Assembly (NCBI GenBank): GCA_041664605.1
Contig: JBAYKO010000003.1
Span: forward strand, 6,858-70,857
Reading direction: 5' to 3'
Length of the DNA stretch: 64,000 nucleotides
Origin: Minisyncoccota bacterium
GTDB taxonomy: Bacteria > Patescibacteriota > Minisyncoccia > Phycocordibacterales > UBA9973
Shown here: positions 1,367 to 46,228 of the stretch, in pieces
Layout: every line of letters starts with the position of its first letter
How positions within the stretch are numbered: position 1 is the stretch's first letter
Notes under the pieces: model-generated
What the model was told of the DNA's origin: nothing
What the model saw: only the letters and a program-made list of their open reading frames with translations
Databases searched by the model: none
Program-made: the position numbers and the translations under genes

Positions 1367-3316
1367 TTAAAATTTAATTTTTTCTTTACTAATAAATTTC
1401 ACAAATTCTTCCGCGATATCGTCCAAATCGTGGTCAATTATTTTCTTGCCTTTTAAGTCATACATAACATTCCCATCTTTGTCTTTCCTGTAAATATAAT
1501 CCCCCGAATTATCTTTCCCGCCCTTTTTCGAAACTGCCATAAATATCGGATAATCTTCTAGTGGTTTTTCATTTTCTTCCCATTTTTGTAAAAACAAAAC
1601 GCTAGTTTTAACTCCAGTATGCGGTTTAAAAGTATTTCCATGAAGCCCAACCACTGACAAAATTCGTGCTTTATCAAAAAGAAATCTGCGAACATATTCG
1701 GCATTTGTATTGTTAAAAATTCCTTGAGGTAAAACTATTGCCATGCGTCCGCCCGGTTTTAGGAAACTCAAATTTCTTTCAATAAATAAAATATCACGAG
1801 TTACTTTGTTTTGATGTTTATTGGTTTTGTGAAAATCTTTGTCCCATTTAAAACCTAAATCATATTTGTTTAAAAGTGTGCCTTTTATTTCTCCGGCAAA
1901 AGGCGGATTGGTAAGAACGATATCAAAATTGAAATCATTCATTTTTTCTTGATTTCTTCTGTTTTCTTCGCCATCTTTTGGATGAGCTAAAAATTGCCTG
2001 AATCTATTTCTTGCATCTTCATTCCAAACTTCTGAATCTAAGGAGTTGGCGTAAGTGACATTGGTTTTTCCATCGCCAGCGATCAACATCATAGCTTTAC
2101 CGATTTTTACAGAACGAGGATCAAAATCTATACCAAAAAGATGTTTTTCGGCATATTCTTTTTGTTTCATTTTATATTCATTACCATATTTTTTCTCATT
2201 TATTTCATTTTCCCAAACATACTGCATCGCATGAAGTAAAAATCCGCAACTGCCTGAAGCGGTGTCAATAATCATATCTTTAGGACTTGGAGCAAGCATC
2301 TTTACTGCCATATCAATAACTGGTCTCGGAGTAAAATATTGTCCTTTTTGCCCTTTTGACTCTTGAACAATAAGATATTCAAAGGCTTCGTCTATAATCT
2401 GTAAATTTGAACCAAAAAGACGATATTTTTGCAAAAGAGAAACTGCTGGAATAATTACATTTTCTGGAATTTCTATTTCTTCATTTGGCTTAAAAACATC
2501 TCTCCATTCTTTTCTGGCTTCTTCAAAAAGACGTGAGATATTATTTAGATTTTCTTTATTTGTTTCCCCTGCTATTACTCGAAAACGTCTGTTTTCATTT
2601 CTTGGAGTTTCTAGTTCGTCATACAATTTCGCATAAATAAGTTTAAAAATTTCTTCAAAAGAATTCACCCCACTATTTGCCAGAACAACTTCTTCTAAGT
2701 CAGAAATAAGCTGTTTTAAATCAACAACTGTTTCTAAGTCATTATAAGTAAGTTTTTTAGAACGAACATCATCAACAGTTTCATTAAATTTTGGAATATC
2801 CGGTAAATCTTCAAAAAGATTCGGGTCTGTACGTAAAATATTATTTTGAATTTTTCCATCGGTCAAAACTAAAATCGGAGCACCTGTGGCATTAGCATAA
2901 CTTTTTAATTGACCAAGTCCATCTTTCACATCTGGCTTTTTGACTTCAACAATTAAGTAAGGAGTTTGCATATCTTCTCGGTAAATAACAATATCAGCTC
3001 TTTTAGCACTGATCTCACGACCAAATTGAACGTGAACTTCTACATCCATTCTATTTAAAGGATATTTGTAATGGTTTTTTAATTTGTAAATCATAAGCTG
3101 GCGGACTATTTCTTCTGGCTTACTTAGATTTTTTTCTTCATTAAAAATTAAAATATCTTTGTCTCTTTTTAAACATTTAACATAAAACTTACCTTTTTCT
3201 TTTTCAAAAATGTCTAGCACTTCATTTATATCTACATCATGAAAAACAGATAGACCAAAAATTGCATCTTGATTTTTAAAAACTTTATTTATTATTTTGT
3301 TAGTTGTTTCTTTCAT
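1367..3316 (-). CDS. restriction-modification fusion protein: N-terminal PD-(D/E)xK nuclease (HsdR-N-like) + gamma-class N6-adenine DNA methyltransferase (BcgI-A-like architecture)
   Basis: N-terminal motif ADIVIY..PYLIVEVKKPD (D..EVK). C-terminal half has the NPPF catalytic motif (TNPPFAGE) and AdoMet-binding region (IIDTASGSCGFL). Length of 649 aa is close to BcgIA. Confidence 0.75.
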   Translation of the reverse strand: MKETTNKIINKVFKNQDAIFGLSVFHDVDINEVLDIFEKEKGKFYVKCLKRDKDILIFNEEKNLSKPEEIVRQLMIYKLKNHYKYPLNRMDVEVHVQFGREISAKRADIVIYREDMQTPYLIVEVKKPDVKDGLGQLKSYANATGAPILVLTDGKIQNNILRTDPNLFEDLPDIPKFNETVDDVRSKKLTYNDLETVVDLKQLISDLEEVVLANSGVNSFEEIFKLIYAKLYDELETPRNENRRFRVIAGETNKENLNNISRLFEEARKEWRDVFKPNEEIEIPENVIIPAVSLLQKYRLFGSNLQIIDEAFEYLIVQESKGQKGQYFTPRPVIDMAVKMLAPSPKDMIIDTASGSCGFLLHAMQYVWENEINEKKYGNEYKMKQKEYAEKHLFGIDFDPRSVKIGKAMMLIAGDGKTNVTYANSLDSEVWNEDARNRFRQFLAHPKDGEENRRNQEKMNDFNFDIVLTNPPFAGEIKGTLLNKYDLGFKWDKDFHKTNKHQNKVTRDILFIERNLSFLKPGGRMAIVLPQGIFNNTNAEYVRRFLFDKARILSVVGLHGNTFKPHTGVKTSVLFLQKWEENEKPLEDYPIFMAVSKKGGKDNSGDYIYRKDKDGNVMYDLKGKKIIDHDLDDIAEEFVKFISKEKIKF

Positions 3317-3952
3317 TTAATTTATTGTGCTTAAATTTAATATAACCTTTCCTTCGAAAACTATTTCTTCGGGAATTATTTTAATAATGTCATAGTTTGG
3401 GTTTTCCGGCTTTAAAAAAATTTTTGAACCTTCGACCATAAATCTTTTAACAGTTGTGCCGTCAGAATTCCTAGCCACAACAATATCTCCATTTTTAAAC
3501 GATTTACTTTTTTGAATTAAAAGTTTATCGCCATCATTTATGTTGGCATTAATCATTGAATCTCCATGAACTTGAACAATAAAAACATCTTCTGCTCTTT
3601 TTATTTTTTCTTCTGGAATAATTCCAGTTGGAACTTCCATCCATTTAAATTCAACATCTTGAAATGATTCTGTAAAAGGACCAGCCGAAGAAATCCCAAC
3701 CATTGGAAACATTTGTTTGCCTAAAATTTTAAAACCAAGTGGAGTTATTTTAATACTTCTAGCTGAACCCTCGCTTCTTTTGAGAGTTTGTGATTTTTCT
3801 AATTTTCCTAAAAGATCAATAATTGATTGATTGGAAGCAACTTTCAAATTTTCTCTCATTTCTTCAAAACTAGGTGGAAAGCCCGTGTTTTTAATAAAAT
3901 CATAAATAATTTGGAGAAGTTCTTTTTGCCTTGTGGTTATAGATAATTTCAT
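3317..3952 (-). CDS. lexA: LexA-family repressor (wHTH + S24 peptidase)
   Basis: N-terminal LexA DNA-binding fold (TRQKELLQIIYDFIKNTGFPPSFEEM..LEKSQTLKR). AG cleavage site (SSAGPF). Ser in GDSM and Lys in VKRF form the dyad. Stop abuts the downstream RM gene start (3316/3317). Confidence 0.8.
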   Translation of the reverse strand: MKLSITTRQKELLQIIYDFIKNTGFPPSFEEMRENLKVASNQSIIDLLGKLEKSQTLKRSEGSARSIKITPLGFKILGKQMFPMVGISSAGPFTESFQDVEFKWMEVPTGIIPEEKIKRAEDVFIVQVHGDSMINANINDGDKLLIQKSKSFKNGDIVVARNSDGTTVKRFMVEGSKIFLKPENPNYDIIKIIPEEIVFEGKVILNLSTIN

Positions 3953-3960
3953 ACATTATC

Positions 3961-3998
3961 ATTATACCCGACCATATAGTCAGTTTGCAAACAAAACT
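3961..3998 (-). promoter_or_regulatory. putative lexA promoter (-10 TATAAT, -35 TTGCAA) with a 10-bp perfect palindrome GTTTGCAAAC overlapping the -35
   Basis: Minus-strand reading gives ..ttGTTTGCAAACtgactatatggtcgggTATAATgataatgtATG. The palindrome sits at 3983-3992. Confidence 0.4.
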
Positions 3999-4064
3999 GT
4001 GGAAAACCCAATAATTGTGTGTATCACAAGTTACTAAACTAAATAGCTTTTTGGTAAGTAGTCT

Positions 4065-4090
4065 AAAAACCACCCTTAAGGGTGGTTTTT
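4065..4090. terminator. bidirectional rho-independent terminator hairpin (AAAAACCACCC-ttaa-GGGTGGTTTTT)
   Basis: 11-bp stem with A/T runs on both sides. Lies between lexA upstream region and the 3' end of the SWIB gene. Confidence 0.6.
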
Positions 4091-4113
4091 AGACTAAATC
4101 TATGTTTTTAAAT

Positions 4114-4377
4114 TTATGAAAGATGTTTTGAAACAAGTTTTGTCATTTCAAACATATCTACTACTGACTTACCACCAAAAACTTTTTTTAAGTTTTCGTC
4201 AGCAACTATATTTCTCTTATTTTTAGGGTCTTGAAGATTATGCTTCTTGATATATACCCAAAGAGCCTTGACCACCTCGGAACGAGGCATTGGACCCTTA
4301 CCCACAACTGCTGATAAATCAGCACTAATCGTTAAAGGCTTCATAAAACCAGAGTTTGCTTTTTTTGTTGTTACCAT
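4114..4377 (-). CDS. SWIB/MDM2 domain protein
   Basis: 87 aa; LTISADLSAVVGKGPMPRSEVVKALWVYIKKHNLQDPKNKRNI matches the SWIB fold signature. Confidence 0.75.
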   Translation of the reverse strand: MVTTKKANSGFMKPLTISADLSAVVGKGPMPRSEVVKALWVYIKKHNLQDPKNKRNIVADENLKKVFGGKSVVDMFEMTKLVSKHLS

Positions 4378-4515
4378 AAAATAAAATTAGTTTCTAGTAA
4401 CTAGGTTCTCCCGCCTTTGGACGGGACAGGTAGTTTCTAGTGAAAAGAAACTTTTATAATAATATTAATAATTTATAATTACTATTATACTACAAAAACA
4501 AAGTTATATACAGAA

Positions 4516-4543
4516 GGGGGGCGGAGGCAACGCCTCCGCCCCC
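4516..4543. repeat. GC-rich hairpin GGGGGGCGGAGGC-aac-GCCTCCGCCCCC + T-run; left copy of an inverted repeat flanking fic
   Basis: 13-bp G/C stem in an AT-rich context. Exact reverse complement (including the ttctgt flank) of the copy at 5808-5842. Confidence 0.7.
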
Positions 4544-4585
4544 ATTTTTTTATTTAAGCATTTGGGTTACTTTTGTGGGCATAAA

Positions 4586-5650
4586 TTATATTTTCTTATA
4601 CCTTGTAGCACGGCCTTGCCCAATACGCTTAATTTTGTTTAAGCGGAGTAATTTTTCTATTGATTGATTGACAGTAGGACGACCAACGTCAGTATATTTT
4701 ACAATATCCCCAGCACTAGCATCTTCCACACTTCCGATATAATTCCAAACTTCCAATTGTTTCTGAGATAAAATATCCTCTAAATGTTCAGTCTCAAGAA
4801 GTGCAATAGCTCTTATACTTTGTTCCTCAACAACACTCAAAAAGAATAGAAGCCATGCTTCGATTGATTGATTTTTTGTTTTAAATGTCCCCTGACTTTG
4901 ACGTAAGGTAGTGTAATATTCTTCTTTTCGTTTTTCAATAATTTGTTCATGCGAAACATACGGCATATATAAATAGCCAGCACGAAGTAAGAGAATATTT
5001 GTCAAAATACGAGAAAGACGACCATTTCCATCTTTAAATGGATGAATTTTTAAAAATTCTACTAAAAAATTACCAATGACAAGTAAGGGGTGTATTTCTT
5101 TCTTTTCTAATTCAGAATATGTCCATTCAACAATTTCAGTCATTTCTTTTTGAGTAAGCCAAGCTTGTGTAGTTTCAAAAATAATCTGCCCTATTTCTCC
5201 ATTTTCTTTTTGAATCGCAACAGCATTTTCTTCTTGTTTGTATTTACCAGAATGTAATTTGTCTTTTTCTGAATACTTCAACATTGCTTTATGTAAGTGT
5301 TGTATTACACCTTCACGAAGTGGTAACGTTTCAAAACTATCAAAAATATTTGATAGTAATTCAAGATACCCTTTCACTTCTTGTACATCTCTATCTCGAA
5401 ATTTTGTTGTTGAGAGACCACGCATAACTCTTTCTACTTCTTCATCCGACAATTGTGAGCCTTCTATACGAGTAGAAGCCCCTGAGGAAGTGATAAGTAC
5501 TGAATGATGAAGAGTTGTTAGAATAGACGGGGTAAGTTTACTTCCAAAACTCCATTTACCTTTAATCTCATCTATACGAGCAATAAACTCCCAAACTTTT
5601 CCGTCGAGTTTTATTAAACGCTTATTAAATTGGTTGTTATTTTTATCCAT
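4586..5650 (-). CDS. fic: Fic-family (FIC domain) protein, class II with N-terminal inhibitory motif and C-terminal wHTH
   Basis: Canonical Fic motif HPFKDGNGRLSR. Inhibitory helix motif STRIEG ((S/T)xxxE(G/N)) near the N-terminus. Confidence 0.85.
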   Translation of the reverse strand: MDKNNNQFNKRLIKLDGKVWEFIARIDEIKGKWSFGSKLTPSILTTLHHSVLITSSGASTRIEGSQLSDEEVERVMRGLSTTKFRDRDVQEVKGYLELLSNIFDSFETLPLREGVIQHLHKAMLKYSEKDKLHSGKYKQEENAVAIQKENGEIGQIIFETTQAWLTQKEMTEIVEWTYSELEKKEIHPLLVIGNFLVEFLKIHPFKDGNGRLSRILTNILLLRAGYLYMPYVSHEQIIEKRKEEYYTTLRQSQGTFKTKNQSIEAWLLFFLSVVEEQSIRAIALLETEHLEDILSQKQLEVWNYIGSVEDASAGDIVKYTDVGRPTVNQSIEKLLRLNKIKRIGQGRATRYKKI

Positions 5651-5807
5651 AATCTTATATATTTGATATATTAGATTATATATGATTATATTAGAAAATG
5701 CAAGTTTAGCGTGAATTTTGACTATTTTTAGCCAAAATTCACGCTATTTTATAATATTTTCTTCAAATTATCCTTTATTTTCTTCTCTAATTTGGCAGAC
5801 TCATTAA

Positions 5808-5842
5808 GGGGGGCGGAGGCGTTGCCTCCGCCCCCCTTTCTG
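5808..5842. repeat. GC-rich hairpin GGGGGGCGGAGGC-gtt-GCCTCCGCCCCCC-tttctgt; right (inverted) copy of the fic-flanking repeat
   Basis: Reverse complement of 4510-4543 including the loop (aac/gtt) and flank (acagaa/ttctgt). Confidence 0.7.
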
Positions 5843-5900
5843 TGCCTTCCACAAGCTAAAAATCTCCCGAAGGGGAGATTTTCTTGTATTTTGTGGTCAC
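5840..5900. repeat. ~60-nt structured repeat copy A (CCACAA..hairpin AAAATCTCCCgaagGGGAGATTTT..TTGTGG)
   Basis: About 80% identical to the copy at 5979-6038. Each copy is a nested hairpin. Confidence 0.55.
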
Positions 5901-5978
5901 GAATATTTTTTTGTCGTCACAAAAAAATTTCTCGACCCCGGCTCGGCTTTTTGTCTACTGACAAAATATGCCTGTGCC

Positions 5979-6038
5979 TTCCACAAACTAAAAAATCCCC
6001 AGCAGTGGGGATTTTTTTACGTTTGTGGACCTTATTGG
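5979..6038. repeat. ~60-nt structured repeat copy B (CCACAA..hairpin AAAATCCCCagcagtGGGGATTTT..TTGTGG)
   Basis: Direct repeat of 5840-5900. Confidence 0.55.
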
Positions 6039-6244
6039 ATTAAACTGGAACCAAGTAGTTGCCGAATTGTATCAATGGCACCTAGTAATGGAGGCAGTTA
6101 AGCCATATAAAGCACTTTAAAAGGTTTGATAATAGTAACTATCGCTATATGGTTCCCTTATCGTGTCACTGGGAGCTTACATTGATCGTTACCGGCTATT
6201 ATAGACCTTATATGCAGAATGAGCTAGTAATGTACAATACTCCG

Positions 6245-6403
6245 CTAAGCATAATTTATTTTATTCTGGAATTTCCAGACTGCATTCATATAAGTAACAA
6301 GTGCCGTAAGCTCGTCTCGGGCACGGGCTTTGTCTACTGGATGGCCGAATTCTTCTAGATATACAGCCATATATTTTTCTATCTGTTCTTCACTTATTTG
6401 CAT
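6245..6403 (-). CDS. possible small ORF (52 aa), hypothetical
   Basis: ATG at 6403, stop at 6245. Sits at the start of the GC-elevated island. Below the ORF-track length cutoff, so weakly supported. Confidence 0.25.
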   Translation of the reverse strand: MQISEEQIEKYMAVYLEEFGHPVDKARARDELTALVTYMNAVWKFQNKINYA

Positions 6404-7112
6404 ATTCTATAAAAGACGGGAGTGTTTTATATTTTCCAAAGTTTTCACCAGTATTTGCATTAGTACCGGAAAGATACATACTAGTAATTGTATTAAAAAC
6501 TTCAAAAACATCATCAGAATCTTCGAAGTTTCCGCCAAAATTTGCACCAGGTTGCATATCGGTAACAAACATACATGCATCCCAAGGATTTTTACCTAAA
6601 AGTCCAGCAGCTGCCCAAGAATAAATTAATTCTGATAACATCTCATACCAGATATAATAACGCTCTATTTTTTCAAGATCAGAATCGCTTCCACTAATAG
6701 CACTTTCTATCATTTTAGAGTAATTTGAAAAGCGTATGTCTGTATTGTATTTATTTGTTGTTGATCTAATAGGGATGTTTTCAAGTAATAAAGCGTCTAA
6801 ATCAGGGAGTATTTTTTCTACTTGTATTTTTCTCTTTATCTCAACTAACCAATTGAACGCTATATTATAATCAGAAAATCCACTACTATCATATTTTATC
6901 CCTAATTTAAAATCCTCTTTACCTTGTAAAGTAAAAGAATTCAAGATAAATGGCCAGGATGCTTGTAGCGTATATAAATCATAAAACATATTTCTGACTA
7001 CCTTGCTGGAATATTCTTCTCTAGAATACTTTTTACGCCACTCCAAAAGAACGCTGTATAGTTTAGATAAAATTTCATCTTGCAATAATAAGGTTTCATT
7101 TTTATTTTCCAT
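6390..7112 (-). CDS. hypothetical protein (240 aa)
   Basis: Long ORF with no recognised motif; lies inside the higher-GC island. Confidence 0.5.
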   Translation of the reverse strand: MENKNETLLLQDEILSKLYSVLLEWRKKYSREEYSSKVVRNMFYDLYTLQASWPFILNSFTLQGKEDFKLGIKYDSSGFSDYNIAFNWLVEIKRKIQVEKILPDLDALLLENIPIRSTTNKYNTDIRFSNYSKMIESAISGSDSDLEKIERYYIWYEMLSELIYSWAAAGLLGKNPWDACMFVTDMQPGANFGGNFEDSDDVFEVFNTITSMYLSGTNANTGENFGKYKTLPSFIEYANK

Positions 7113-11677: not shown

Positions 11678-14266
11678 TTATGTTATTAAATTTTTAACTT
11701 CTTGAATATCTTTTTTTAATTTTTCAATATTATCCGGCATGGCATGCTGTATCATTTCGTTTGATTGATCATGAGCATCTATATACCGACTAAATTCCTC
11801 GTGGAGTTCCTTTGCTTTTTCAAGCTTTGATTTGTTAAGGGTTGCTCTAGGTATATTACGCATCTGAATTTGCTCGGACCATCTTGTAACAACTTTCCCA
11901 AATATCTTTTCTTCCACGGCCTTTTCTATAGCTTTTCTTAAGTTACTGTAGGCGGTTCTAATACCATCTCTTTTACTCTCACCGCTTAAACTTGAAAGAG
12001 AAGTGAACATCCCATCAACCTTTTGAACTTGTGCATTAAAGTTAATAGATCCAGCATAATCATTTTCAGTTACTACACCAGCATCGATATCATTTTTCTC
12101 GACTTTATGAAAGGCTGCTTTTATACTATCTACTTCATGATTTTCCTTTTCAACTTGTTCGTGTAAATAGTTAGCAAACATCAAATCATGAGTGAAAACA
12201 ATGACTTGTCGTGATTCAGATTCCTTGACAATTCTTTTGGCGATTTTTTCTTTTCTGTCATGGTCAAAACTGGTAGCAGGATCGTCAAATATGACAGGGG
12301 TCTTTTCACCTTGCATTGCCAATTCAGCAAAAAAATCAGAGAGTGCAACTGCCTTTTGTTCTCCTTCGCTTAAAAACTGATTAATATGGTCCATCCCGCT
12401 TAAGCTTTTCTCTCTCATTTGCGAACCATATTCACCTCGAAAATTCAAGTTTACATTTGGTGCATCGAGACTTGCGACTTCAGTGTTGAATTGCCGTTTA
12501 AATGAATCTGACACTAATTCCTTCCATGCTTTCATCCCGAGCTCTGTTATAGGTCTGGTATTAAATTTAACCGCAAGAGAGCTTGCTTTTGCTATCCATT
12601 GATTAATTCCGATGTATTTTTCTACATGTCTTTTATATTTTGAAAATTTCTGAATATCTTTCATTTCAACCTCTGCCAGATTCAACTCTACTGAACGACG
12701 GTTAAAATTTCGCTGTGCTTCATTAAGCTGTTTTATATCGTTTTCAATTTTCGCTTTCACTAATCCAGTACTGGTTATAAGACCACTGATATTCAACGGT
12801 TTCAGTTTACCTGCTTTTTTCGTGTTCAAGCATCCAATAACCTGCTGGATTAAAGCATCCGCATTATCCATGGCGTCAAATGAAGAATGAGCTAGTTTTT
12901 TCGTAAGTATTTTTACGAAGTCGTTTTTTTTATATGGAAAATTATTACTAAATGAAATATCTTCCAAATTTGAAAGTGCTTCATCAAGCTCATTCTCTAT
13001 GTCCTCGAAATCATTTGACTCCTCTTCTTCGAAGAGCTTCCTGTAGAGTTGTATGAGTTTGGTCGCTGTCTTGCTAAGCTTTTGCTGACAATAGATACAA
13101 TTATCAGCCTCCTCGGGATAATTTTCATGATAGGCAATATCAGTATACGATTCTCCTGCTTCGATGAATTTTTCCCATTCATCCGATGCCATTTCCGGAA
13201 TTTTATAATCATCCAGTGTTTTTCCTTTCTTTTCCGTAAATTTCTTCTTGCTTATGTTGAATTTTTTTATCAATTGTAAATAAGTGCGAACACTCGCTGG
13301 CGAAGTCTCTGTTTTAATTTCTTCCAATTTTTCCTGCAGGGCAGTCACTTTCTGTAATCTTGTTTGTAGATTTTCAAATTGCAGGTCCATGTTTTGTAAG
13401 CTCTTGGACTCTTTGATGTTCGCTAACAGTGCTTCCTTGGCAGACTGACCCCACTGAGGAAGTTTATTTAAGTCTGCAACTTTTGTTGAAGGACCAATAC
13501 TATTAATAAATTTTCCTATTGTAGTTCCACTATTGAAAATACCTTCAAGTGGCGGTTTGTCGTCTTCTGCTTTCTGTATATGGTTTGTCATTCGCTGCTG
13601 TAAACCAGTCAATGCACGTGAAGCAGATTGGAATAATTCAAAACCATATGGTTGATAGGAAAAATCGAGTCCTTCGGTTAAGTAGATTGGAATACATTCT
13701 CCATCAAAAATACTCATTCGATTGAATGGGGTTAATGTATTATGGCCATCCCACATAACTGTTCGATCCGTACCATTATTAAACACAATCTTTACCTTAC
13801 ACTCATTCTTTTTTTTTGAGTTATTTATATTTTGCCAAATATCTTCCTGCGTTCTCGATGCACTGATTCTCTTCAAAATACGGACAAAGCCTGATTTACC
13901 ACTTCCATTTTTACCATAAATTACAGTGAGTCGTGAGTGGAATGATAGTGTTGCCCCTTTGACTAGTGCATTCACGCCATCCTCATGTACTAAATTCTTA
14001 AGTTCAAATCCATTGTTAGCAGTCAAAGGTCTAGCAATTACCGGAGTAGGGGTTTTAATGTCGGTACTTTTTTCTTTGGCATCACTCAGTCCGTGTGTAA
14101 TCAAAAAATCTTCGTATATTGTGTCTAAAAACGTATTGTCAGGAACGGCACGGATGGAAATGATCCGATCCAGTAACGGACTCATCCATTGTTCACGATC
14201 TTGAGCCCCAAATTCCTTTAGGTAGTCGTCAGCTTTAGTTTTTGGAATAGGAGTAACTTCTGACAT
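11678..14266 (-). CDS. large ABC-type ATPase with a coiled-coil insert and central CxxC zinc hook (RloC/Rad50-like), plus a ~160-aa C-terminal extension
   Basis: Walker A GKNGSGKSG (~aa 118). CIYC at ~aa 388, midway through the coiled coil. ABC signature LSEGEQ, Walker B VIFDDP and H-loop VIVFTHD at ~aa 640-700. C-terminal tail contains SRYIDAH (Rx4H). Confidence 0.8.
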   Translation of the reverse strand: MSEVTPIPKTKADDYLKEFGAQDREQWMSPLLDRIISIRAVPDNTFLDTIYEDFLITHGLSDAKEKSTDIKTPTPVIARPLTANNGFELKNLVHEDGVNALVKGATLSFHSRLTVIYGKNGSGKSGFVRILKRISASRTQEDIWQNINNSKKKNECKVKIVFNNGTDRTVMWDGHNTLTPFNRMSIFDGECIPIYLTEGLDFSYQPYGFELFQSASRALTGLQQRMTNHIQKAEDDKPPLEGIFNSGTTIGKFINSIGPSTKVADLNKLPQWGQSAKEALLANIKESKSLQNMDLQFENLQTRLQKVTALQEKLEEIKTETSPASVRTYLQLIKKFNISKKKFTEKKGKTLDDYKIPEMASDEWEKFIEAGESYTDIAYHENYPEEADNCIYCQQKLSKTATKLIQLYRKLFEEEESNDFEDIENELDEALSNLEDISFSNNFPYKKNDFVKILTKKLAHSSFDAMDNADALIQQVIGCLNTKKAGKLKPLNISGLITSTGLVKAKIENDIKQLNEAQRNFNRRSVELNLAEVEMKDIQKFSKYKRHVEKYIGINQWIAKASSLAVKFNTRPITELGMKAWKELVSDSFKRQFNTEVASLDAPNVNLNFRGEYGSQMREKSLSGMDHINQFLSEGEQKAVALSDFFAELAMQGEKTPVIFDDPATSFDHDRKEKIAKRIVKESESRQVIVFTHDLMFANYLHEQVEKENHEVDSIKAAFHKVEKNDIDAGVVTENDYAGSINFNAQVQKVDGMFTSLSSLSGESKRDGIRTAYSNLRKAIEKAVEEKIFGKVVTRWSEQIQMRNIPRATLNKSKLEKAKELHEEFSRYIDAHDQSNEMIQHAMPDNIEKLKKDIQEVKNLIT

Positions 14267-14356: not shown

Positions 14357-15436
14357 TTATTTTATAAACCTTACCTGTAGGTTTAATTTCATAAAGTACC
14401 GTCCACCTTCTTTGAATACACTTATTGGATATCGAGTTGTACTCGGTGTATCAAGCTTGGTGTTATTTATTAAATAATCCCTAAAATCTTCTATATTGTA
14501 TAAATAATAACAAAGCACATCACCGTCTTTTTTTACCAACAAAAAACCACCCAAACTAGTAAGTATCCCATTCCATTCTTTATTAGGCATCATCCCTAAA
14601 GCCATCACGCTTAAAAATTCTTTTATTTTATGAATTGGTTGAATATTTTGCTTGTCGGCTATTGGAAAATTTATTTCCAATAAATCAGAAAAACTAGTCG
14701 CACCTCTGGAATAGAAAGATAATAGAATTTTTGCTATGTGCAACGCCAAATTACTATCAATCAACGACATATTGTTTTTAAATTTCTCACTATCAACATT
14801 ATGCAAAACTATGTTATATCCACTACTTATCAAGAGACCGACATTATCCTTCACATTTTTAGCGTGTAGCTTTGGTAATTTAATTGGTACCTTCATTTTT
14901 TCATCGAGAATTTCAAAAGTGAAGCTTGTCGCCTTTGATGAGTTAAGAAGCGTTGACGGACTGCCCAGTTGTGACTTTATACTAAAACCAATTTCAGGAC
15001 TTGGTTTTTTCGTCTTTACATCAAAAACCACTAAGTCTAAGTCTTTTTTATCAGAGCTAGATGCTTTAATAATTTCCTTCTGCAAAATTTGCATCATTTC
15101 TGACCCAACTTCTAATGGAAAAGATCGACCCTCATTTTTGACTGAGAGATTATTGAACATTCTATTTAAAATTGACTCGATTTTTTTTACTTTTACAGAG
15201 GCTACTTTATTTTTTCCAGAAAAAATATCAACGACTTCTTGACCTATTTCATATGTAACTTTTTCCTTTCCTGCTTTTTCAGAAAAAATTATTTTTAGTA
15301 CCTTGTAAAATAAATCTTCTCTACGATTTTGATATTTGTCTGCAGCGTATGCACCACCATTTACCAATAGAAAAGCTAGTGCGTACAACTCACTCCACTC
15401 CCCAGTATTGCCAGTTGTCTGTTTTTGATTAATCAT
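14357..15436 (-). CDS. putative type II restriction endonuclease cognate to the upstream m5C-MTase
   Basis: Start overlaps the MTase stop by 8 nt. No catalytic motif recognised, so the call is positional. Confidence 0.45.
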   Translation of the reverse strand: MINQKQTTGNTGEWSELYALAFLLVNGGAYAADKYQNRREDLFYKVLKIIFSEKAGKEKVTYEIGQEVVDIFSGKNKVASVKVKKIESILNRMFNNLSVKNEGRSFPLEVGSEMMQILQKEIIKASSSDKKDLDLVVFDVKTKKPSPEIGFSIKSQLGSPSTLLNSSKATSFTFEILDEKMKVPIKLPKLHAKNVKDNVGLLISSGYNIVLHNVDSEKFKNNMSLIDSNLALHIAKILLSFYSRGATSFSDLLEINFPIADKQNIQPIHKIKEFLSVMALGMMPNKEWNGILTSLGGFLLVKKDGDVLCYYLYNIEDFRDYLINNTKLDTPSTTRYPISVFKEGGRYFMKLNLQVRFIK

Positions 15437-16328
15437 AATGATTTTCTAACGCCTCAATTATTTTTTTTGCATAATCCTGTATTGCATAAATTGCCACACT
15501 GTTGCCTAACTGCTTCATGGCCTGGCTTTCTGTAACAGGAAATATAAAATCTTCAGGAAAGCCCTGCATTTTTTTCCCTTCTTTTGAAGTAATTCTTTTT
15601 ACTTTTCCGTTCACCAAATAGCTGTCCCAATTTCGTCTGTCGGTAATATTGGACCCCTTACCACCAACTCTAAGAGTAAAACCAACTTCTTTATTTACCT
15701 TTGCTCCATCAAAGACATCGGACATGGTAAATTTTAAAGGTCTTTTTTGTGGAAATTCAAAAGGTATTTTTTTGTTTTTAAAACCAATCATAAACAAACG
15801 GGGGCGGTTCTGTGGCAGGCCGTGCTCCGATGCTTTTACAATATTAAAATGAAGAGAATATCCCAAATCTTTAGTCAAAACATTACTAATTACTTCAAAT
15901 GTTTTTCCATTATCGTGAGCAAGTAAACCCCTGACATTTTCCAAAAAGAATGCTTTTGGTTTTTTTACACGAATAATTTCTGCAATGTTATAAAACAAGG
16001 TCCCACGTGTATCATTAAAACCTTTCTTGAAACCAGCCTGACTAAATGGCTGACACGGAAAGCCTCCAGTTAAAATATCAAAATTGGGTATTTTTTTTGG
16101 ATCGATTTTTGTAATATCTCCAACAAAATTTCCACTAGAAAATAATTCGGGGTCAATTTTTTCAAAATTTGTCTGGTATGTATTTCTTGCATGAGAATCC
16201 CATTCTGACGAAAAAACGCACTTGGCACCAACATTATTAAAAGCTATATGAAAACCTCCAATTCCTGCGAATAGATCAATAAATGTAAATTTTTTCTTTT
16301 TCATTTTAATATTTGCCATATATAACAA
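15429..16328 (-). CDS. DNA (cytosine-5)-methyltransferase
   Basis: Motif I DLFAGIGGF, motif IV GFPCQPFS, motif VI FLENVRGL, motif VIII QNRPRLF, motif X GNSVAI. Confidence 0.9.
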   Translation of the reverse strand: MLYMANIKMKKKKFTFIDLFAGIGGFHIAFNNVGAKCVFSSEWDSHARNTYQTNFEKIDPELFSSGNFVGDITKIDPKKIPNFDILTGGFPCQPFSQAGFKKGFNDTRGTLFYNIAEIIRVKKPKAFFLENVRGLLAHDNGKTFEVISNVLTKDLGYSLHFNIVKASEHGLPQNRPRLFMIGFKNKKIPFEFPQKRPLKFTMSDVFDGAKVNKEVGFTLRVGGKGSNITDRRNWDSYLVNGKVKRITSKEGKKMQGFPEDFIFPVTESQAMKQLGNSVAIYAIQDYAKKIIEALENHYD

Positions 16329-17944: not shown

Positions 17945-18313
17945 ATGAAAAATAATATTAAAGAATCTAAAAAAAATCTTATAAAAATGGTAAAAGGTGT
18001 GCAGATGGACCAAACAATTGATGCCGTGCAAGGACTAGTTAAGGCATATGGTTTTAAAATAGCAGCTTCATTAATAAGAATGACTTTAGAAGCTACATAT
18101 GAAGTTGATCAGAAGAATGTAAAAGAGGAAAAAAGTAAAAATAGGAAAGAAATGATAACGGTAGAATTTAAAGATGGTAAAAAAAATATATGTATCGCCT
18201 CAGAAAGACGCCCAGGAGAAACGAAGAATCAACACGAAGAAAGGATCGAATTAATGAAAAAAATGATGATAGACGCTTCTATATCTAATAAATATGGTGG
18301 CCTTTGTATCTAG
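17945..18313 (+). CDS. hypothetical protein (122 aa)
   Basis: ORF only; overlaps the start of the prim-pol gene. Confidence 0.4.
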   Translation: MKNNIKESKKNLIKMVKGVQMDQTIDAVQGLVKAYGFKIAASLIRMTLEATYEVDQKNVKEEKSKNRKEMITVEFKDGKKNICIASERRPGETKNQHEERIELMKKMMIDASISNKYGGLCI

Positions 18314-20141
18314 AAAATACATGGAAAATAATATTACAAATAAAAAACTGGAAGCGGCGTTAAGATATACAGCAATGGGATGGGTTATTGTGCCAGCGAT
18401 AGGAAAACATCCTTGTGTGAAATGGAAAAAATTCCAGAAAGTTAAGCCAACCCAGGATCAAATAAAAGAATTCTGGACAAAGTTTCCTAATGCTAAAATA
18501 GCAGTCATTACCGGTCCACTGTCGAGTATTGTGGTATTCGATATTGACACGAAACATAATCGTAGGCCGGAAGAATTTGATTTACCTGCCACAGTATCGT
18601 CACGGACGACTAACGGTGGTTGGCATTACTTCTTCAAGCATCCAGGATATAAAGTTAGAAATAGTAATGGGACACTGTTTGGGCCAGGAATTGATATTAA
18701 GGGAGATTCCGGAATTGCCATATTACCTTCGTCAGATACTGGTCCAGACAAGGCGTATACATGGGCTGTAGAGTCTACTGGTGACAACATGGCACCGATG
18801 CCGAAATGGCTGGAAGATAGAATCTCGAGTGCCCAGAGTACTCCCACCCTGCCCGCTATGATTACTAGCAACGAGGTTGTACTTACTAATAAAATTGGAG
18901 AATCAAGCCTGAATGAAATACCGGAAGGGACTCGCAATGACAAGCTTACAAAGTTAACAGGCACACTATTAGCCAAGTTTAAGCCTAATGAGTGGAATTC
19001 TCTGGTGTGGCCTATTGTTACTTCTTTTAACACAGCCAACTGTAAACCACCATTGCCACTATCCGAAGTAAAAAGTATATTTGATTCTATTTCTGGATCC
19101 GAGATGTCAAAACCATCTATGGTTAATACTGGACCGATTGAAATTCTGACAGCAAAGGAACTCAAAGAACTACCATTCACGGATCCTAAATGGGTTGTTG
19201 ACGGCTTGTTCGAAGCCGGCACGGTAAATATGATTGGAGCCGCTTATAGTAACTTCAAAAGTATGATCAGTATGCATGTGGCGGATTGCTTGATTACCGG
19301 CAAACCTGTATTCAACAAGTTCGAAGTTGTTAAGCAGTCTGTATGGGTAATTAATGAGGAAGATCCTAAACGCCATGTACAGGAAAGAATGAATATCATA
19401 AATAGCGACTGGGGTGAGTTACCAATTTACTTCTCGATCAAAAAAGGATTAAAGCTGAGCGATGATATCGTCGGACAGATTATCGTACGAAGTAAAGCAC
19501 TCGGCATAGGTTTTGTAATTTTTGACTCGTTGAGGAGTGTGCATGACAAGGAGGAAAACGCTTCAGGGGAAATGCAGGCTGTAATGGATTGGCTCGGCAA
19601 GATCGCAGATGCAGGTATAACTGTCCTATTCACACACCATAATCGAAAGAGAAGCGGTTTTGGTAAGGCAAACGAGGGTGAAGAAGCACGAGGTAGTAGC
19701 GTTATAACCAATGCATCACATAGCTATATATCATCTAATGCAAAGAAAGAAAATGGCATGGACTATGCGATTATCATGCAACATAAACAAAAATCGGCGA
19801 AAAAATTAGATCCGTTTCGAATACGCATCAACCTACTACCTGACTGCGACAACGATGAACGCTTTATTTATGAGGGTGAAGAAATAAATAACAGCCTAGT
19901 TGTGTTAAAAGCAAAAATTATAGGAGCACTGGAATCATCCGAGAAATGGCTATTTATGAATGATTTCACAGCATTGAAGTTCGGTGGTAAAAAAACCATT
20001 AAAAAGGCCTTAGACGAATTAGTGTTGGAAGAAAGAATTGAATGTAAATTAGGTGAAGAAATTATTAGGGAGGAATTAGATGCATCAATTGCTGTGCCTC
20101 GCCCCAATGCCAAATTTTATTTTTTGGCCAATGAGGAATAG
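18294..20141 (+). CDS. mobile-element replication protein: bifunctional primase-polymerase (Prim-Pol) N-domain + RecA-like / AAA_25-type NTPase C-domain
   Basis: Prim-Pol motifs VVFDIDTKH and GGWHYFF. C-terminal domain shows a RepA/DnaB-like pattern (VIFDSLRSV.., LFTHHNRK). The Walker A appears degenerate (IGAAYSNFKS). Confidence 0.75.
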   Translation: MVAFVSRKYMENNITNKKLEAALRYTAMGWVIVPAIGKHPCVKWKKFQKVKPTQDQIKEFWTKFPNAKIAVITGPLSSIVVFDIDTKHNRRPEEFDLPATVSSRTTNGGWHYFFKHPGYKVRNSNGTLFGPGIDIKGDSGIAILPSSDTGPDKAYTWAVESTGDNMAPMPKWLEDRISSAQSTPTLPAMITSNEVVLTNKIGESSLNEIPEGTRNDKLTKLTGTLLAKFKPNEWNSLVWPIVTSFNTANCKPPLPLSEVKSIFDSISGSEMSKPSMVNTGPIEILTAKELKELPFTDPKWVVDGLFEAGTVNMIGAAYSNFKSMISMHVADCLITGKPVFNKFEVVKQSVWVINEEDPKRHVQERMNIINSDWGELPIYFSIKKGLKLSDDIVGQIIVRSKALGIGFVIFDSLRSVHDKEENASGEMQAVMDWLGKIADAGITVLFTHHNRKRSGFGKANEGEEARGSSVITNASHSYISSNAKKENGMDYAIIMQHKQKSAKKLDPFRIRINLLPDCDNDERFIYEGEEINNSLVVLKAKIIGALESSEKWLFMNDFTALKFGGKKTIKKALDELVLEERIECKLGEEIIREELDASIAVPRPNAKFYFLANEE

Positions 20142-20258: not shown

Positions 20259-21902
20259 ATGCAAAGCAATGTATTAACAGTAGTAAAAATTAAATTAAGT
20301 TGTATTATGAAAAATATGAAGACTGGAATTATATATACAAGAGTAAGTTCAGACGAACAGATCAAAGGTACCTCCCTCGGTGAACAGGAGGAATTTTGTC
20401 GTAAATATTGTGCCGAAAAGGATATAACCATAGTGCGTGAGGTATTCCGTGAAGAAGGAGCTTCTGCCAAGAGTACCGATCGGGCAGTGTTTTTGAGTGC
20501 TATTGAATACTGTCGAAAAAACAAGGTAGACTTTTTTGTCGTTTGGAAGTGTGATCGCTTTGCCAGAAATTCAACCGACCATTACGCAGTCAAAAGCACC
20601 TTATTAAAATACGGCACCCGGCTTGACTCTGTAACAGAGCAGATCGGAGACGATCCAACTGGTAAACTAATGGAGGGTATGATGGCTATTATTGGCGAAT
20701 TTGATAACGATATACGAAAACAGCGTTGCAGTGGCGGAATGCTTGGCAGACTGAAACAAGGAATATGGCCATGGAAACCACCTATTGGTTATATCTGTGA
20801 AAATAACAAAAAGCAGGACAGGAAGAAAGAACAGCCGGACCCGATTAACCCGGTTATATTTCCTATCATTCAGCGTGGCTTAAAAGAATTCGTGGCTGGA
20901 CAATACACCATGACGCAATTAGCAGAAGCATATAATCGCTATGGGCTTGTTGCTCCAAATGGTAAAAAAATAAACGCAAAATTAGTAGACAGATTGTTTA
21001 CACATCATCTGGCCTATTATGCTGGTATATTGAATAATCCATTTTTCCCCAAGAACGGCGAAGCTTCATATGAGGGTAAGCATACTCCCATGATCACCAA
21101 GGAAGAATACAGGGCGATCTTAATGATCCGAGCAGGTAAAAGGGTGCAGACAATGAAACGGAGTCGCCACAACCCAATATTTCCCCTCAAAGGTAGCGTA
21201 TTTTGCTCTAAATGCGACAAGAGGCTAACTGGAAGCTGTTCCCGTGGGAATGGCGGGGTTTATGCCTTCTACCACTGCTATAACGTCTCATGTGACCTCC
21301 GTGGCAAGACAGTCCAAAAGAAAATCATTGAAGACGCCTTTATTAAATTTCTGGAGTCTGTTACTCCTAATGAAAAGTTTTTAAAACTGTTCGAGGAGAT
21401 AGTCATACAGCACTGGACCAACAAAGGCCATGTATTCGAAGTACAGACTAATAAATATGCAAAAGAGATAGCCGAATTGAATCAAAAGAAAAAGAGGATC
21501 TATGAAATGAGAGAGGACGGCGAATACACCAAGGAACAATGCACAGATAGATTGAACGAAATAGAAGACAAAATAGTCGCATTGGATATTTCTTTAAACG
21601 AGGCAAAAATAGAGCAGTTTGATGTTGAAGCTACAGTGAAATATGCAGTAAGGACCATTACTGATTTACCAAAACTTTGGTTTGATCTTGCACCGGAATT
21701 ACGCCCACGGTTCCAAAAGATGGTATTTCCCGAGGGAGTTCTCTATTCCAAAGAAGAAAGTTTTCGAACCAACAAATTGGCTTATATCTACGAGCTAAAA
21801 AAGAAAAAAGGAGCTCAAAGAACTCCTTTTTTCAACATAGTGGACCCTAGCGGATTCGAACCGCTGACCTCCTCATTGCAAATGAGGCGCTCTACCAGCT
21901 AA
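20259..21902 (+). CDS. large serine recombinase (integrase)
   Basis: Resolvase catalytic region GIIYTRVSSDEQ. Recombinase domain and Cys-rich zinc-ribbon (CSKCDKR..CSRGNGGVYAFYHC). Spacing of the catalytic Ser suggests the true start is nearer 20307 (MKNMKTGIIY). The 3' end overlaps tRNA-Ala. Confidence 0.85.
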   Translation: MQSNVLTVVKIKLSCIMKNMKTGIIYTRVSSDEQIKGTSLGEQEEFCRKYCAEKDITIVREVFREEGASAKSTDRAVFLSAIEYCRKNKVDFFVVWKCDRFARNSTDHYAVKSTLLKYGTRLDSVTEQIGDDPTGKLMEGMMAIIGEFDNDIRKQRCSGGMLGRLKQGIWPWKPPIGYICENNKKQDRKKEQPDPINPVIFPIIQRGLKEFVAGQYTMTQLAEAYNRYGLVAPNGKKINAKLVDRLFTHHLAYYAGILNNPFFPKNGEASYEGKHTPMITKEEYRAILMIRAGKRVQTMKRSRHNPIFPLKGSVFCSKCDKRLTGSCSRGNGGVYAFYHCYNVSCDLRGKTVQKKIIEDAFIKFLESVTPNEKFLKLFEEIVIQHWTNKGHVFEVQTNKYAKEIAELNQKKKRIYEMREDGEYTKEQCTDRLNEIEDKIVALDISLNEAKIEQFDVEATVKYAVRTITDLPKLWFDLAPELRPRFQKMVFPEGVLYSKEESFRTNKLAYIYELKKKKGAQRTPFFNIVDPSGFEPLTSSLQMRRSTS

Positions 21903-21913
21903 GCTAAGGGCCC
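21841..21913 (-). tRNA. tRNA-Ala (anticodon UGC)
   Basis: Manual cloverleaf fold. Acceptor GGGCCCT/AGGGTCC with the Ala G3:U70 pair. Anticodon stem CCTCA/TGAGG with loop TTTGCAA. T-loop TTCGAAT. Length 73 nt with no encoded CCA. Confidence 0.9.
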
Positions 21914-21932
21914 ATTATATTATATTTTTACA

Positions 21933-21983
21933 AAATTGGGCTTTACTCCTGTTGCTTCCACGAAGCGCTACAACTAAGCTACA
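21933..21983 (-). pseudogene. tRNA-like 5' fragment (acceptor + D-arm only) in tandem upstream of tRNA-Ala
   Basis: GGGTCTGTAGCTTAGTTGTAGCGC resembles a tRNA 5' half (TAGCTTAG identical to the tRNA-Ala D-arm) but has no anticodon or T arm. Confidence 0.35.
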
Positions 21984-28526: not shown

Positions 28527-28537
28527 ATTTTTATCCA

Positions 28538-28583
28538 ATATGACATTCCAACTCCGACCATAGTCGGAGTTGGAATGTCATAT
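28538..28583. repeat. perfect 21-bp-stem palindrome ATATGACATTCCAACTCCGAC-cata-GTCGGAGTTGGAATGTCATAT (TCCGACC-core family) abutting the uvrB stop
   Basis: Exact inverted repeat read directly from the sequence. Related to the 28146 hairpin. Confidence 0.7.
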
Positions 28584-36040: not shown

Positions 36041-36087
36041 ATCCCCCTCACTATTTTAAAAGACTTTTTAAAATAGTGAGGGGGATT
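36041..36087. repeat. 18-bp-stem hairpin ATCCCCCTCACTATTTTA..TAAAATAGTGAGGGGGAT abutting the downstream -35
   Basis: Exact long inverted repeat. Its 3' arm ends at the TTGACA of the next promoter. Confidence 0.55.
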
Positions 36088-36532: not shown

Positions 36533-36567
36533 AAAGAGCGTTTCGGTCACCGACCGAAACGCTCTTT
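36533..36567. terminator. bidirectional terminator AAAGAGCGTTTCGGTC..GACCGAAACGCTCTTT
   Basis: ~16-bp stem between the convergent 36130 gene and proS. Confidence 0.65.
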
Positions 36568-44702: not shown

Positions 44703-44726
44703 AGTTTTTTTTATTAACTAATAATT

Positions 44727-45926
44727 TTATAAACCAAGATCAAAAATCTTAGCTTTAGTTTTTGGACCAAGAATCCCATCACCTATTAAGCTATGCGCCA
44801 TTTGCCATTCTATAAGAGCAGCCTTAGTAACTGAACCAAATCTTCCATCAAGTCCATAGTTTATCATAGCTTGACCTCCTACATTTTGAGAGATAAGAAA
44901 TTCTTGTAAGGATTTTACAAAATCTCCCATACTTCCCTTTTTTAGAGTACCGGCAATTGAGCTGACTGTCTGACCAAAAAGAGATGCTTGAGGTAGTGTT
45001 ATGGAACCTCCACTATTTCCACTAGAATTATTTGAACCTGAATTTGAATTTGAATTAGGGCAACTTAATACCATCCCACAATAAGTGGTTGGGTTATAAC
45101 TAGGACCAGGAATATAGGTACAACCTTGTGCTGGAGTTATATAATCACATATATGTTGAGAATTTTCTGACACTGTACTTATTTTATTAGCATCTAAGGT
45201 AACCGCTGTCTGCGCTAATGCCCTACCAATTAAACTAGCACCAGTGTTTAAGACAATCGCTGTTTGATCTAAAATATTTCCATTAAAGGTAGCTCCTGTG
45301 CCAATCGTTGTTTGCCCTGCTACAATCCAAAAAATATTTTCTGCTCTTGCTCCACTACTAAGGATAACTTTTTTTGTAGAACTAATATTAAGATTTTGAG
45401 CTATTTGAAAAATCCAAACATCATTTGCGCTACCAGACAAAGTAACATCTGTTGGAATTGTTAATCCTGTACTCCATTTATATAACCCAGGAGCAAGAGT
45501 CATCCCCCCTATGTTTCCAGCACCAAGTTCGGTCGCAGTTGGATTTGTTCTTCCAGCACCAGAAGTATACGCAGTTTGCATATCACTGATTGCTGTAGTC
45601 ATCTTAACTGGAGTAGGACTGGCATAGCCAGGTGCATATATTTTACCAGTAACCAAAGCTGAAGTTGAAAATTGACTAGCCGTAGGAAGAATTAAATTAA
45701 ATCCAGTTATATAACTTGCTGCGGCTGGACTAATTCCAAGATCCCCAACAATAGAAGTAGTTCCAGTAGTTGAAATTCCTGTTTTTGCTAAAATCACAAA
45801 ATCACTAGCTGATCCGAGATTTATTATTGCTGGACCCGCAGAAAATGCAATCATTGGCCCAACGAGACTAGGTATCAATAAAACGGCAAGTATTGTCATT
45901 TTAATATTTTTGTTAAAGTTTTTCAT
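44727..45926 (-). CDS. secreted DUF3494 (ice-binding-like) protein with a C-terminal PG-binding domain
   Basis: LGSASDFVILAKTGISTTGTTSIVGDLGISP. C-terminal GDGILGPKT PG_binding_1 motif. Confidence 0.65.
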   Translation of the reverse strand: MKNFNKNIKMTILAVLLIPSLVGPMIAFSAGPAIINLGSASDFVILAKTGISTTGTTSIVGDLGISPAAASYITGFNLILPTASQFSTSALVTGKIYAPGYASPTPVKMTTAISDMQTAYTSGAGRTNPTATELGAGNIGGMTLAPGLYKWSTGLTIPTDVTLSGSANDVWIFQIAQNLNISSTKKVILSSGARAENIFWIVAGQTTIGTGATFNGNILDQTAIVLNTGASLIGRALAQTAVTLDANKISTVSENSQHICDYITPAQGCTYIPGPSYNPTTYCGMVLSCPNSNSNSGSNNSSGNSGGSITLPQASLFGQTVSSIAGTLKKGSMGDFVKSLQEFLISQNVGGQAMINYGLDGRFGSVTKAALIEWQMAHSLIGDGILGPKTKAKIFDLGL

Positions 45927-46228
45927 AAATTTTATAGTTAGTTAGTTAGTTTTTTAATCAAGAAAGATTAAAAAATATTAATATGATTAGTAAGATAAAA
46001 AAAGACAATATAATTAATTTCGACCTACATATTGTCCTAGAGATGGCGTTAAGCTATCTATATATAAGTATGGGCTTAATTCAAAAATAAGCCAGGCATA
46101 ACTTCATTAATAGATTAAAAACAAAAAATAGCCCTTTCTCCACAAGGGTATTTTAATAAAAAGATTAAATTGGGTTTATGACTATAAATTGATAAAAACA
46201 AATTTATAGCATTCTTAATGAAATCTAC

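Follow-up and report, generated by a model that had tools for sequence, protein, structure and literature searches.

A defence gene enclosed by two nearly identical GC-rich hairpins in an AT-rich genome raises the question of how the gene and the hairpins came together. Such an arrangement is found around a fic gene in a stretch of 64,000 nt (hereafter referred to as the window; contig JBAYKO010000003.1, positions 6,858 to 70,857 of the forward strand), which is identical to JGI contig Ga0376277_0000758, belongs to the chromosome of a Candidatus Paceibacterota bacterium (candidate phyla radiation, CPR; Patescibacteria) and carries the core genes rpoB/C, uvrABC, sigma-70, dnaG, mreBC and ribosomal protein genes. 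A first-pass annotation of this DNA had described the gene as bracketed by a perfect 35-bp inverted repeat, and had proposed that the repeats are transposon ends mobilising a toxin-like cargo, sites for cassette inversion or terminators. The hairpin feature is real and its composition is unusual. Our tentative answer to the question, which we hold with somewhat less than even confidence, is that the two hairpins are the junction copies of one long chromosomal palindrome at which a fic module entered, the left copy doubling as a terminator.

The features of the locus, given in window coordinates, are the following.

4510 to 4546, no strand assigned: left hairpin, ACAGAA + GGGGGGCGGAGGC-AAC-GCCTCCGCCCCC + ATT, with a 12-bp stem.
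4547 to 4585, minus strand: spacer of 39 nt that separates the left hairpin from the stop codon of fic, locus-specific and A-rich on the fic strand.
4586 to 5650, minus strand: fic, 354 aa, with Pfam matches to Fic (5.6e-14) and DIP2311-like_C and a C-terminal winged-helix domain.
5651 to 5746, minus strand: fic control region, with TTGCAT (5698-5703) and TATAAT (5675-5680) separated by 17 nt.
5747 to 5805, minus strand: spacer between the control region and the right hairpin, locus-specific, with no detectable homology to other fic loci.
5806 to 5843, no strand assigned: right hairpin, AA + GGGGGGCGGAGGC-GTT-GCCTCCGCCCCCC + TTTCTGT, with a stem of 13-15 bp.

When up to three mismatches are allowed, the pattern GGGGGCGGAGGC-NNN-GCCTCCGCCCCC occurs twice in the 64-kb window, to which all our hairpin counts refer, at 4517-4543 (loop AAC) and at 5809-5835 (loop GTT). 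There is no third copy, and 100 dinucleotide-preserving shuffles of the window gave no match. The fic open reading frame (ORF) lies between the two copies, and their start-to-start spacing of 1,292 nt agrees with the ~1.29 kb reported by the first-pass annotation. The repeat is less regular than had been stated. An exact inverted match extends over at most 30 nt (4514-4543 against 5809-5838), not 35, the ungapped inverted arms reach 33 nt with one mismatch (97%), and a match of 37/38 nt that includes ACAG/CTGT is obtained with one 1-nt indel and one mismatch. Similarly, the stems had been given as 13 bp of pure G/C; they comprise 12 bp at the left and 13 bp at the right (15 bp if AA/TT is counted), each with one A:T pair. 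Their richness in G:C pairs is nevertheless as atypical as claimed, since no other perfect hairpin in the window reaches the count of the two copies (11-12); its typical terminators contain 4-5 G:C pairs, have an AAAA-stem-loop-TTTT form and a predicted stability of -13 to -15 kcal/mol; the value predicted for the left hairpin is -26 to -30 kcal/mol. Moreover, ~80 kb of related CPR loci contain no perfect hairpin with at least eight G:C pairs, and an Rfam scan of 3950-6450 returned nothing at gathering score, the sub-threshold matches being generic hairpin noise. Each hairpin is itself a palindrome, so that the copies can be aligned as direct repeats too, at 88% identity, and nothing but the 3-nt loop and 4-6 bases of flank defines them as inverted. 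The reported reversal of loop and flank holds for AAC/GTT and ACAG/CTGT, with the qualification that the latter is aligned through the indel. The left hairpin lies 40 nt 3' of the fic stop codon and is followed by TTTTTTTATTT on the plus strand, and the right one stands 156 nt 5' of the start codon, ~100 nt 5' of the conserved promoter region.

The gene between the hairpins had been assigned to class II Fic proteins, and the alignment bears this out: an N-terminal STRIEG inhibitory motif (SxxxEG, class II) and the HPFKDGNGRLSR active-site motif are both present, in accordance with the class signatures (S/T)xxxE(G/N) and HxFx(D/E)GNGRxxR. The protein matches SoFic structures (PDB 8uqu, 4.8e-31), and its match to the SoFic defence model of PADLOC has a value of 1.9e-43. 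Judged by its motifs and model matches, fic is a SoFic-type class II anti-phage defence gene, with AMPylation and defence as predicted activities. It shares with the characterized SoFic and class II Fic AMPylases (PMC12249575; PDB 3EQX, 8UQU) the Fic motif, an inhibitory motif that acts within the molecule and the C-terminal winged helix. It differs from these systems by its CPR host and by the 39 nt that precede the hairpin, which are too short for a downstream antitoxin such as AS1. In the control region, the TTGCAT and TATAAT elements are embedded in a tandem ATATAATCATATATAATC motif, and an operator-like 18-bp inverted repeat, CGTGAATTTTG.../...CAAAATTCACG, is located at 5707-5746; the promoter and operator roles are putative. 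The region is kept across nine loci (the window and L033, L037, L040-L044 and L055), which have in common the inverted repeat CGTGAAnnTT...AAnnTTCACG, TTGCnTTTT and a tandem CATATAyAAT overlapping TATAAT. It is a candidate autoregulatory operator for the C-terminal winged-helix domain of Fic.

CPR homologues of this protein number in the thousands, and no relatives were found in IMG/VR. Eight further fic loci were retrieved, with proteins 75-85% identical and each in a different genomic context; the neighbours include ribosomal protein genes, trigger factor, an hsdS/hsdR gap, DpnI and a zeta toxin. Conservation among the loci spans only the segment from about -100 to the stop codon, and the private spacers of the window (-260 to -100 and +1 to +140) have no significant homology to the other loci. 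Since the homologues share only the gene and ~100 nt, in differing contexts, fic and its control region constitute a horizontally mobile module. In this respect the earlier proposal of a mobilised toxin-like cargo stands, the segment behaving as a moved cassette; the insertion sequence (IS) or MITE (miniature transposable element with inverted repeats) ends that went with it do not (see later in the text). The hairpin of the window is absent from all eight other loci.

Repeats of other sequences do flank fic elsewhere. In L042 (79% identity), a 54-nt direct repeat lies at -162 to -109 and +10 to +63 of fic (L042 2839-2892 and 4075-4128) and takes in the ribosome-binding region of the next gene. 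In L044 (76% identity), a 37-nt direct repeat at -204 to -168 and +30 to +66 (L044 2793-2829 and 4094-4130) matches codons 9-21 of hsdR, the gene downstream. The hairpin repeat of the window occupies -193 to -156 and +40 to +76, so that the three pairs have similar offsets and unrelated, locus-specific sequences. As a control, flanking repeats were scored for 87 genes from the window and the related loci. The four highest scores belong to fic in L042 (81, direct), a glycosyltransferase gene in L040 (75, direct), fic in the window (64, inverted) and fic in L044 (64, direct), and none of the remaining 83 genes exceeds 40. The L040 gene (GT4 glycosyltransferase, 2302 to 3453, minus strand) adjoins a fic homologue and is flanked by a 76-nt direct repeat at 2219-2294 and 3535-3610. 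This repeat is the 3' end of an Smr gene, and its copies are 80% identical with mostly synonymous differences, a pattern that suggests donor and recipient alleles, not a fresh duplication. In L037, two related 22-nt hairpins (17/22 identical, the same loop, two compensatory stem changes) are found at -166 and +4 of fic; their similarity is not significant alone (score 19, against a shuffle mean of ~19-22). The five remaining fic loci gave no flanking repeat.

The public collections scanned for the hairpin were the GTDB species genomes, the JGI metagenomes and IMG/VR. With one genome per species (185,579 species), five matches were obtained, all in other organisms, with other loops and with longer and different stems. 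A slightly looser pattern gave 24 heterogeneous matches in 241 M metagenome records and none in the IMG/VR viral contigs. We rejected the idea of a widespread element, as the collection matches differ in loop, flanks and GC content and have no blastn or tblastx homology beyond the stem; those of low GC content show no other nucleotide or translated similarity to the window. The further copies in other genomes for which the first-pass annotation had proposed to look thus amount to unrelated matches, and the hairpin, far from standing at many genes as a generic terminator would, appears, over the window and the collections scanned, to be confined to this locus. As a separate observation, GGGGCGGAGGC-NNN-GCCTCCGCCCC, its loop varying, is present at least six times on the contigs L009, L017, L026, L029 and L031 (44-50% GC) of JGI sample Ga0172379. 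Two of the copies, at L017 4725-4749 and 4971-4995, are 246 nt apart and have reverse-complementary loops (TTA/TAA); the first is an extended palindrome after a tRNA gene and the second lies within an ORF. These hairpins may be a repeat family of an unrelated organism. A resemblance between a Ga0172379 hairpin flank and ours (ACAGAGAG against ACAGAAAG) needs a 1-nt shift, is marginal and was not used.

How the module may have come to lie between two copies of a private palindrome is best seen together with the elements that adjoin it.

3317 to 3952, minus strand: LexA, to the left of the SWIB gene.
4059 to 4096, no strand assigned: perfect palindrome of 38 nt, between the SWIB gene and the LexA promoter.
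4114 to 4377, minus strand: SWIB/MDM2-domain protein, 87 aa (Pfam 1.9e-31), between fic and LexA.
5840 to 5896 and 5972 to 6028, no strand assigned: nested-hairpin repeat of 57 nt, directly abutting the right GC hairpin.

The starting state would have been a single palindrome, ACAGAAA-GGGGGGCGGAGGC-loop-GCCTCCGCCCCCC-TTTCTGT, between a terminator cluster and the promoter of the SWIB gene. ACAGAA(A) at the left outer end can pair with TTTCTGT at the right one, which would give an ancestral stem of ~20 bp. Such a stem resembles the other long palindromes of this genome: perfect intergenic palindromes at 28537-28584, 36041-36086, 36533-36567 and 4059-4096 have stems of 16-22 bp (-25 to -36 kcal/mol), far longer than those of its ordinary terminators. 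The fic module, consisting of operator, promoter and gene with private spacers of about 40-55 nt on either side, would have entered either by recombination with the same palindrome carried on the incoming DNA, in the manner of an att site, or with duplication of the target, and either junction would be left with one copy of the palindrome. In that case ACAGAA and TTTCTGT, the flanks on the outside, would be the outer stem of the old palindrome, and the inner flanks would derive from the module. As the palindrome has no polarity except in its 3-nt loop, the loop could land in either orientation; had the target simply been duplicated, the loop would have to have flipped later. The uninserted site would read ...TATATACAGAA[A]-hairpin-TTTCTGTGCC... 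and the junction of an excised circle ...CTCATTAA-hairpin-ATTTTTTTATTT... In agreement with such an origin, a locus-specific sequence occurs twice and brackets DNA that is absent from relatives.

The present function of the two copies would differ. In a terminator scan, the left copy passes on both strands, with a strong T-run on the plus strand and 5/8 T on that of fic; the right copy, which has no U-tract, fails on both. The terminator role suggested for each copy is plausible for the left one and less so for the right; the T-run noted at the left is present, although it lies on the plus strand, opposite to fic. Plausibly, the left copy acts today as an orientation-independent transcription stop, predicted to be canonical for plus-strand (antisense) transcripts and to have a weak U-tract for fic. 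The right copy stands behind two canonical terminators (5859-5882 and 5990-6017) and would be at most a roadblock or insulator 5' of a toxin gene; by its sequence it looks more scar-like than terminator-like.

Several points weigh against an origin from one palindrome. The genome was searched for copies over the 64-kb window. Six of the eight other fic loci have no significant flanking repeat, the inserts share no terminal motif and the fic module contains no integrase. The copies match better inverted than direct (97% against 88%), and the AAC/GTT loops together with ACAG/CTGT favour a true inverted duplication; the loop orientation requires an att palindrome usable either way or a later flip. 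The match of ACAG to CTGT may be partly coincidental, since CTGT is also the start of the 57-nt repeat, whose first four bases form the outer end of the inverted hairpin match. Cruciform-resolution models, considered by reasoning only, were set aside because they yield direct duplications and not loop-inverted ones, and leave the loop flip unexplained. Moreover, no empty site was found, and the relatives examined do not conserve the fic flanks; because of this, the single pre-insertion palindrome is hypothetical. Look-ups of the exact SWIB and Fic proteins led to no contigs other than the same three. Relatives with an 85% identical LexA are collinear with the window at 89% nucleotide identity from the methylase gene next to LexA through the LexA promoter, up to window 4016. 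What follows this position in them is entirely different, one relative having TP_methylase and an ATP synthase operon and another TsaE, and no SWIB gene, fic or hairpin was found in them beyond the equivalent of 4016. In two relatives examined, the SWIB gene is not at the equivalent position. Since synteny with relatives ends at 4016, the segment from ~4017 to tRNA-Ala, including the SWIB gene, fic and the island described below, is accessory; the palindrome at 4059-4096 is situated at the edge of this variable region, the homology ending just to its left.

Among the other explanations, those that give the hairpins an active part in moving DNA have the appearance of the locus in their favour. 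In a non-autonomous IS- or MITE-like transposon, the hairpins would be terminal inverted repeats and fic the cargo. A 37/38-nt inverted repeat with palindromic arms, ACAGAA(A) outer bases included, does bound a segment of 1.33 kb, and fic is demonstrably mobile among CPR genomes. However, none of the plausible pairs of ends (all combinations of 4506-4517 with 5834-5847) has a target-site duplication of at least 3 nt, which largely refutes this origin, and the homologous cassettes have other boundaries, lack the repeat and share no common terminal motif. There are two copies, with no solo or empty ones in the window and the collections scanned, and no Pfam domain of a transposase, RAYT/Y1_Tnp or tyrosine recombinase among the window ORFs scanned. 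We consider transposon ends, as first proposed, very improbable. An invertible switch, whose segment would flip between the repeats to regulate fic or its neighbours, is scarcely credible. The Hin and Gin inversion segments are similar in scale to the ~1.3 kb that separates these inverted repeats, but promoter, operator and gene are all inside, so that inversion would not uncouple them; the locus is 100% identical and in the same orientation in three assemblies, and no invertase is adjacent. Cassette inversion, the other mobile role suggested at first, thus finds no support here. It is also conceivable, though unlikely, that the palindromes are recombination sites (Xer/dif, or 13-n-13 as in lox/FRT) for a recombinase of the host or acting in trans, and that fic was moved or inverted between them. 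They would be sites of ~33 nt with 13-bp arms and an asymmetric centre, inverted ~1.3 kb apart around one toxin-type gene. The inverted site pair around a discrete module recalls the Acinetobacter dif modules (PMC6449649, PMC13141974), which are one- or two-gene modules of toxin type with inverted, partly palindromic sites of ~28 nt and no internal recombinase; these 28-bp XerC/XerD sites often enclose toxin-antitoxin genes (PMC6449649). Yet pdif sites are 11-6-11, AT-rich and dif-like, and recur on the replicon and across plasmids (PMC6449649, PMC13141974), whereas the fic sites are 13-3-13, G/C-rich and palindromic through the would-be centre (a comparison with the standard of PMC6449649, which may not be that of CPR bacteria). 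The fic sites exist in two copies only, with no other in the window or the three public collections; exact-protein look-ups gave the same context only, and the related fic modules lack the site and, where they do have flanking repeats, these are non-palindromic and direct. A 3-nt centre also fits neither the 6-8-nt overlap of tyrosine recombinases nor the 2-nt centred crossover of serine recombinases. The hairpin pair of L037 would be in line with recombination sites, were its similarity significant. A large serine recombinase is encoded in the window (20259 to 21902), but it is 14 kb off, beside a tRNA and a PrimPol gene as in a typical integrated island, and no recombinase is adjacent to fic. 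Integron attC sites, which have RYYYAAC and GTTRRRY cores in like orientation to either side of a cassette and an IntI integrase close by, are likewise a poor comparison: by eye, GAGGCAAC around AAC/GTT misfits the RYYYAAC expected at site ends, the loops are oppositely oriented and the window ORFs scanned include no tyrosine recombinase.

The hairpins could, on the other hand, be unconnected with the arrival of fic. Both might be ordinary terminators or insulators whose sequence is shared through local duplication or gene conversion. The left copy, with its scan result on both strands 40 nt after the fic stop codon, agrees with this, every intergenic gap of the gene row has a strong hairpin (4059-4096, 4517-4543, 5808-5836, 5859-5882 and 5990-6017), and tight insulation of a toxin gene would be plausible. 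Like Rho-independent terminators, the copies are strong G:C stem-loops, the left one after a stop codon and with a T-run on one strand. They are unlike them in a stability and G:C content far above the genome norm of AAAA-(4-5 G:C)-TTTT at -13 to -15 kcal/mol, in the lack of a U-tract on either strand of the right copy, which would be redundant behind two canonical terminators, and in being identical in sequence, an exact match of 30 nt being beyond chance or convergence. The flanking repeats at other fic loci would also be left unexplained, and we find this account rather hard to credit. The chance bracketing of fic by two independent, opposite insertions of a small mobile GC palindrome appears more doubtful still. 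GC-rich palindromes in AT-rich DNA are a hallmark of elements like the repetitive extragenic palindromes (REP) and bacterial interspersed mosaic elements (BIME) or the yeast mitochondrial GC clusters, and a GC-rich palindrome in a 30% GC genome fits them; furthermore, the core GGGGCGGAGGC-NNN-GCCTCCGCCCC is multi-copy in one unrelated metagenome, where the L017 pair has a flipped loop. However, the multi-copy contigs are 44-50% GC and otherwise without homology to the window, ~80 kb from relatives contain no copy, and the only two copies in 64 kb both border exactly one acquired gene. The inverted ends or hairpins bounding a short segment are a likeness to MITE and IS termini, REP/BIME and the palindrome-associated elements (PATE) of IS200/IS605 alike; what sets the locus apart is the lack of a target-site duplication, of a multi-copy family and of a cognate transposase (RAYT/Y1, HUH) in the window, and a coding cargo with its own promoter. 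These data either refute the IS/MITE, inversion-switch and generic-terminator readings or give them weak support.

If fic entered at a chromosomal palindrome, as we tentatively propose, the result is a modest one: in an ultra-small CPR bacterium, a toxin-type SoFic gene of the defence island forms a module that is self-contained and bounded, and a palindromic repeat pair may mimic transposon ends, which calls for caution. The more interesting lead is that three of nine related fic loci, together with the glycosyltransferase neighbour, are bracketed by long locus-specific repeats. The closest parallel is with the att- or target-derived repeats of genomic islets, including those of homology-facilitated illegitimate recombination, where an accessory gene is also bracketed by a short locus-specific sequence pair; repeats of other sequences are arranged likewise around the two other fic loci and the one glycosyltransferase gene. 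Unlike the islet repeats, that of the window is palindromic with an inverted-reading loop and outer bases, and no integrase is found in the module. The repeats here (34-76 nt) also exceed transposase target duplications in length. An unlikely but more far-reaching explanation is that Paceibacterota (CPR) genomes gain single-gene defence modules by an undescribed integration process which leaves locus-specific junction repeats of ~35-76 nt, palindromes being possible entry sites. The mechanism may be a trans-acting structure- or palindrome-directed recombination, analogous to Xer/dif yet distinct from it, or an integrase with a very wide stagger. The hairpin pair would then be the footprint of a system, and not a one-off scar. 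Should the bracketing pattern prove general, it would hint at a specific and still undescribed way in which CPR bacteria gain genes; little is known of the mobile elements of these bacteria.

The fic gene is part of a defence-rich, variable stretch (defence island). To the left of it, a 649-aa gene with HSDR_N and N6_Mtase domains (a type I/IIG-like methylase) abuts LexA with a gap of 0-2 nt in the window and in two relatives (window 1367-3952; L048 7001-9586; L051 3771-6373). The pair is 89% identical in nucleotides between the window and L048, everything upstream being different, and this suggests, from gene order and identity, a conserved operon in this Paceibacterota lineage. The hairpins within the 57-nt repeats on the other side of fic (5859-5882 and 5990-6017) are bidirectional and terminator-like and close the upstream minus-strand operon. 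The two copies have a common outer stem, CTGTGCCTTCCACAA...TTGTGG, and inner stems that differ yet both pair (TCTCCC/GGGAGA against ATCCCC/GGGGAT); no Rfam match was found for the repeat. To the right of fic, the GC content rises to 36-42% (against ~30%) in a region of unknown ORFs and defence genes. The segment 6031-21940 is probably an integrated defence island, and window 6031 is exactly where L007, an independent contig in ENA, ends. Its identified genes are listed below.

11678 to 14266: PDC-S06-type ATPase, 862 aa.
14357 to 15436: HpaII endonuclease.
15429 to 16328: C5 methylase.
18294 to 20141: PrimPol-AAA_25 protein.
20259 to 21902: large serine recombinase, whose ORF runs into tRNA-Ala (21840-21913, minus strand).

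As a possible att site matching the tRNA-Ala/serine-recombinase end of this island, CTGTGCCTTCCACAA, the core of the 57-nt repeat, was tried and rejected, the similarity near 21948 not rising above the shuffle background. Finally, further along the window, two Ice_binding-like surface proteins (42903 to 44702 and 44727 to 45926) are tandem paralogues with similar start and upstream regions, and a 70-nt repeat is found at these paralogues, at 44670-44739 and 45894-45963.

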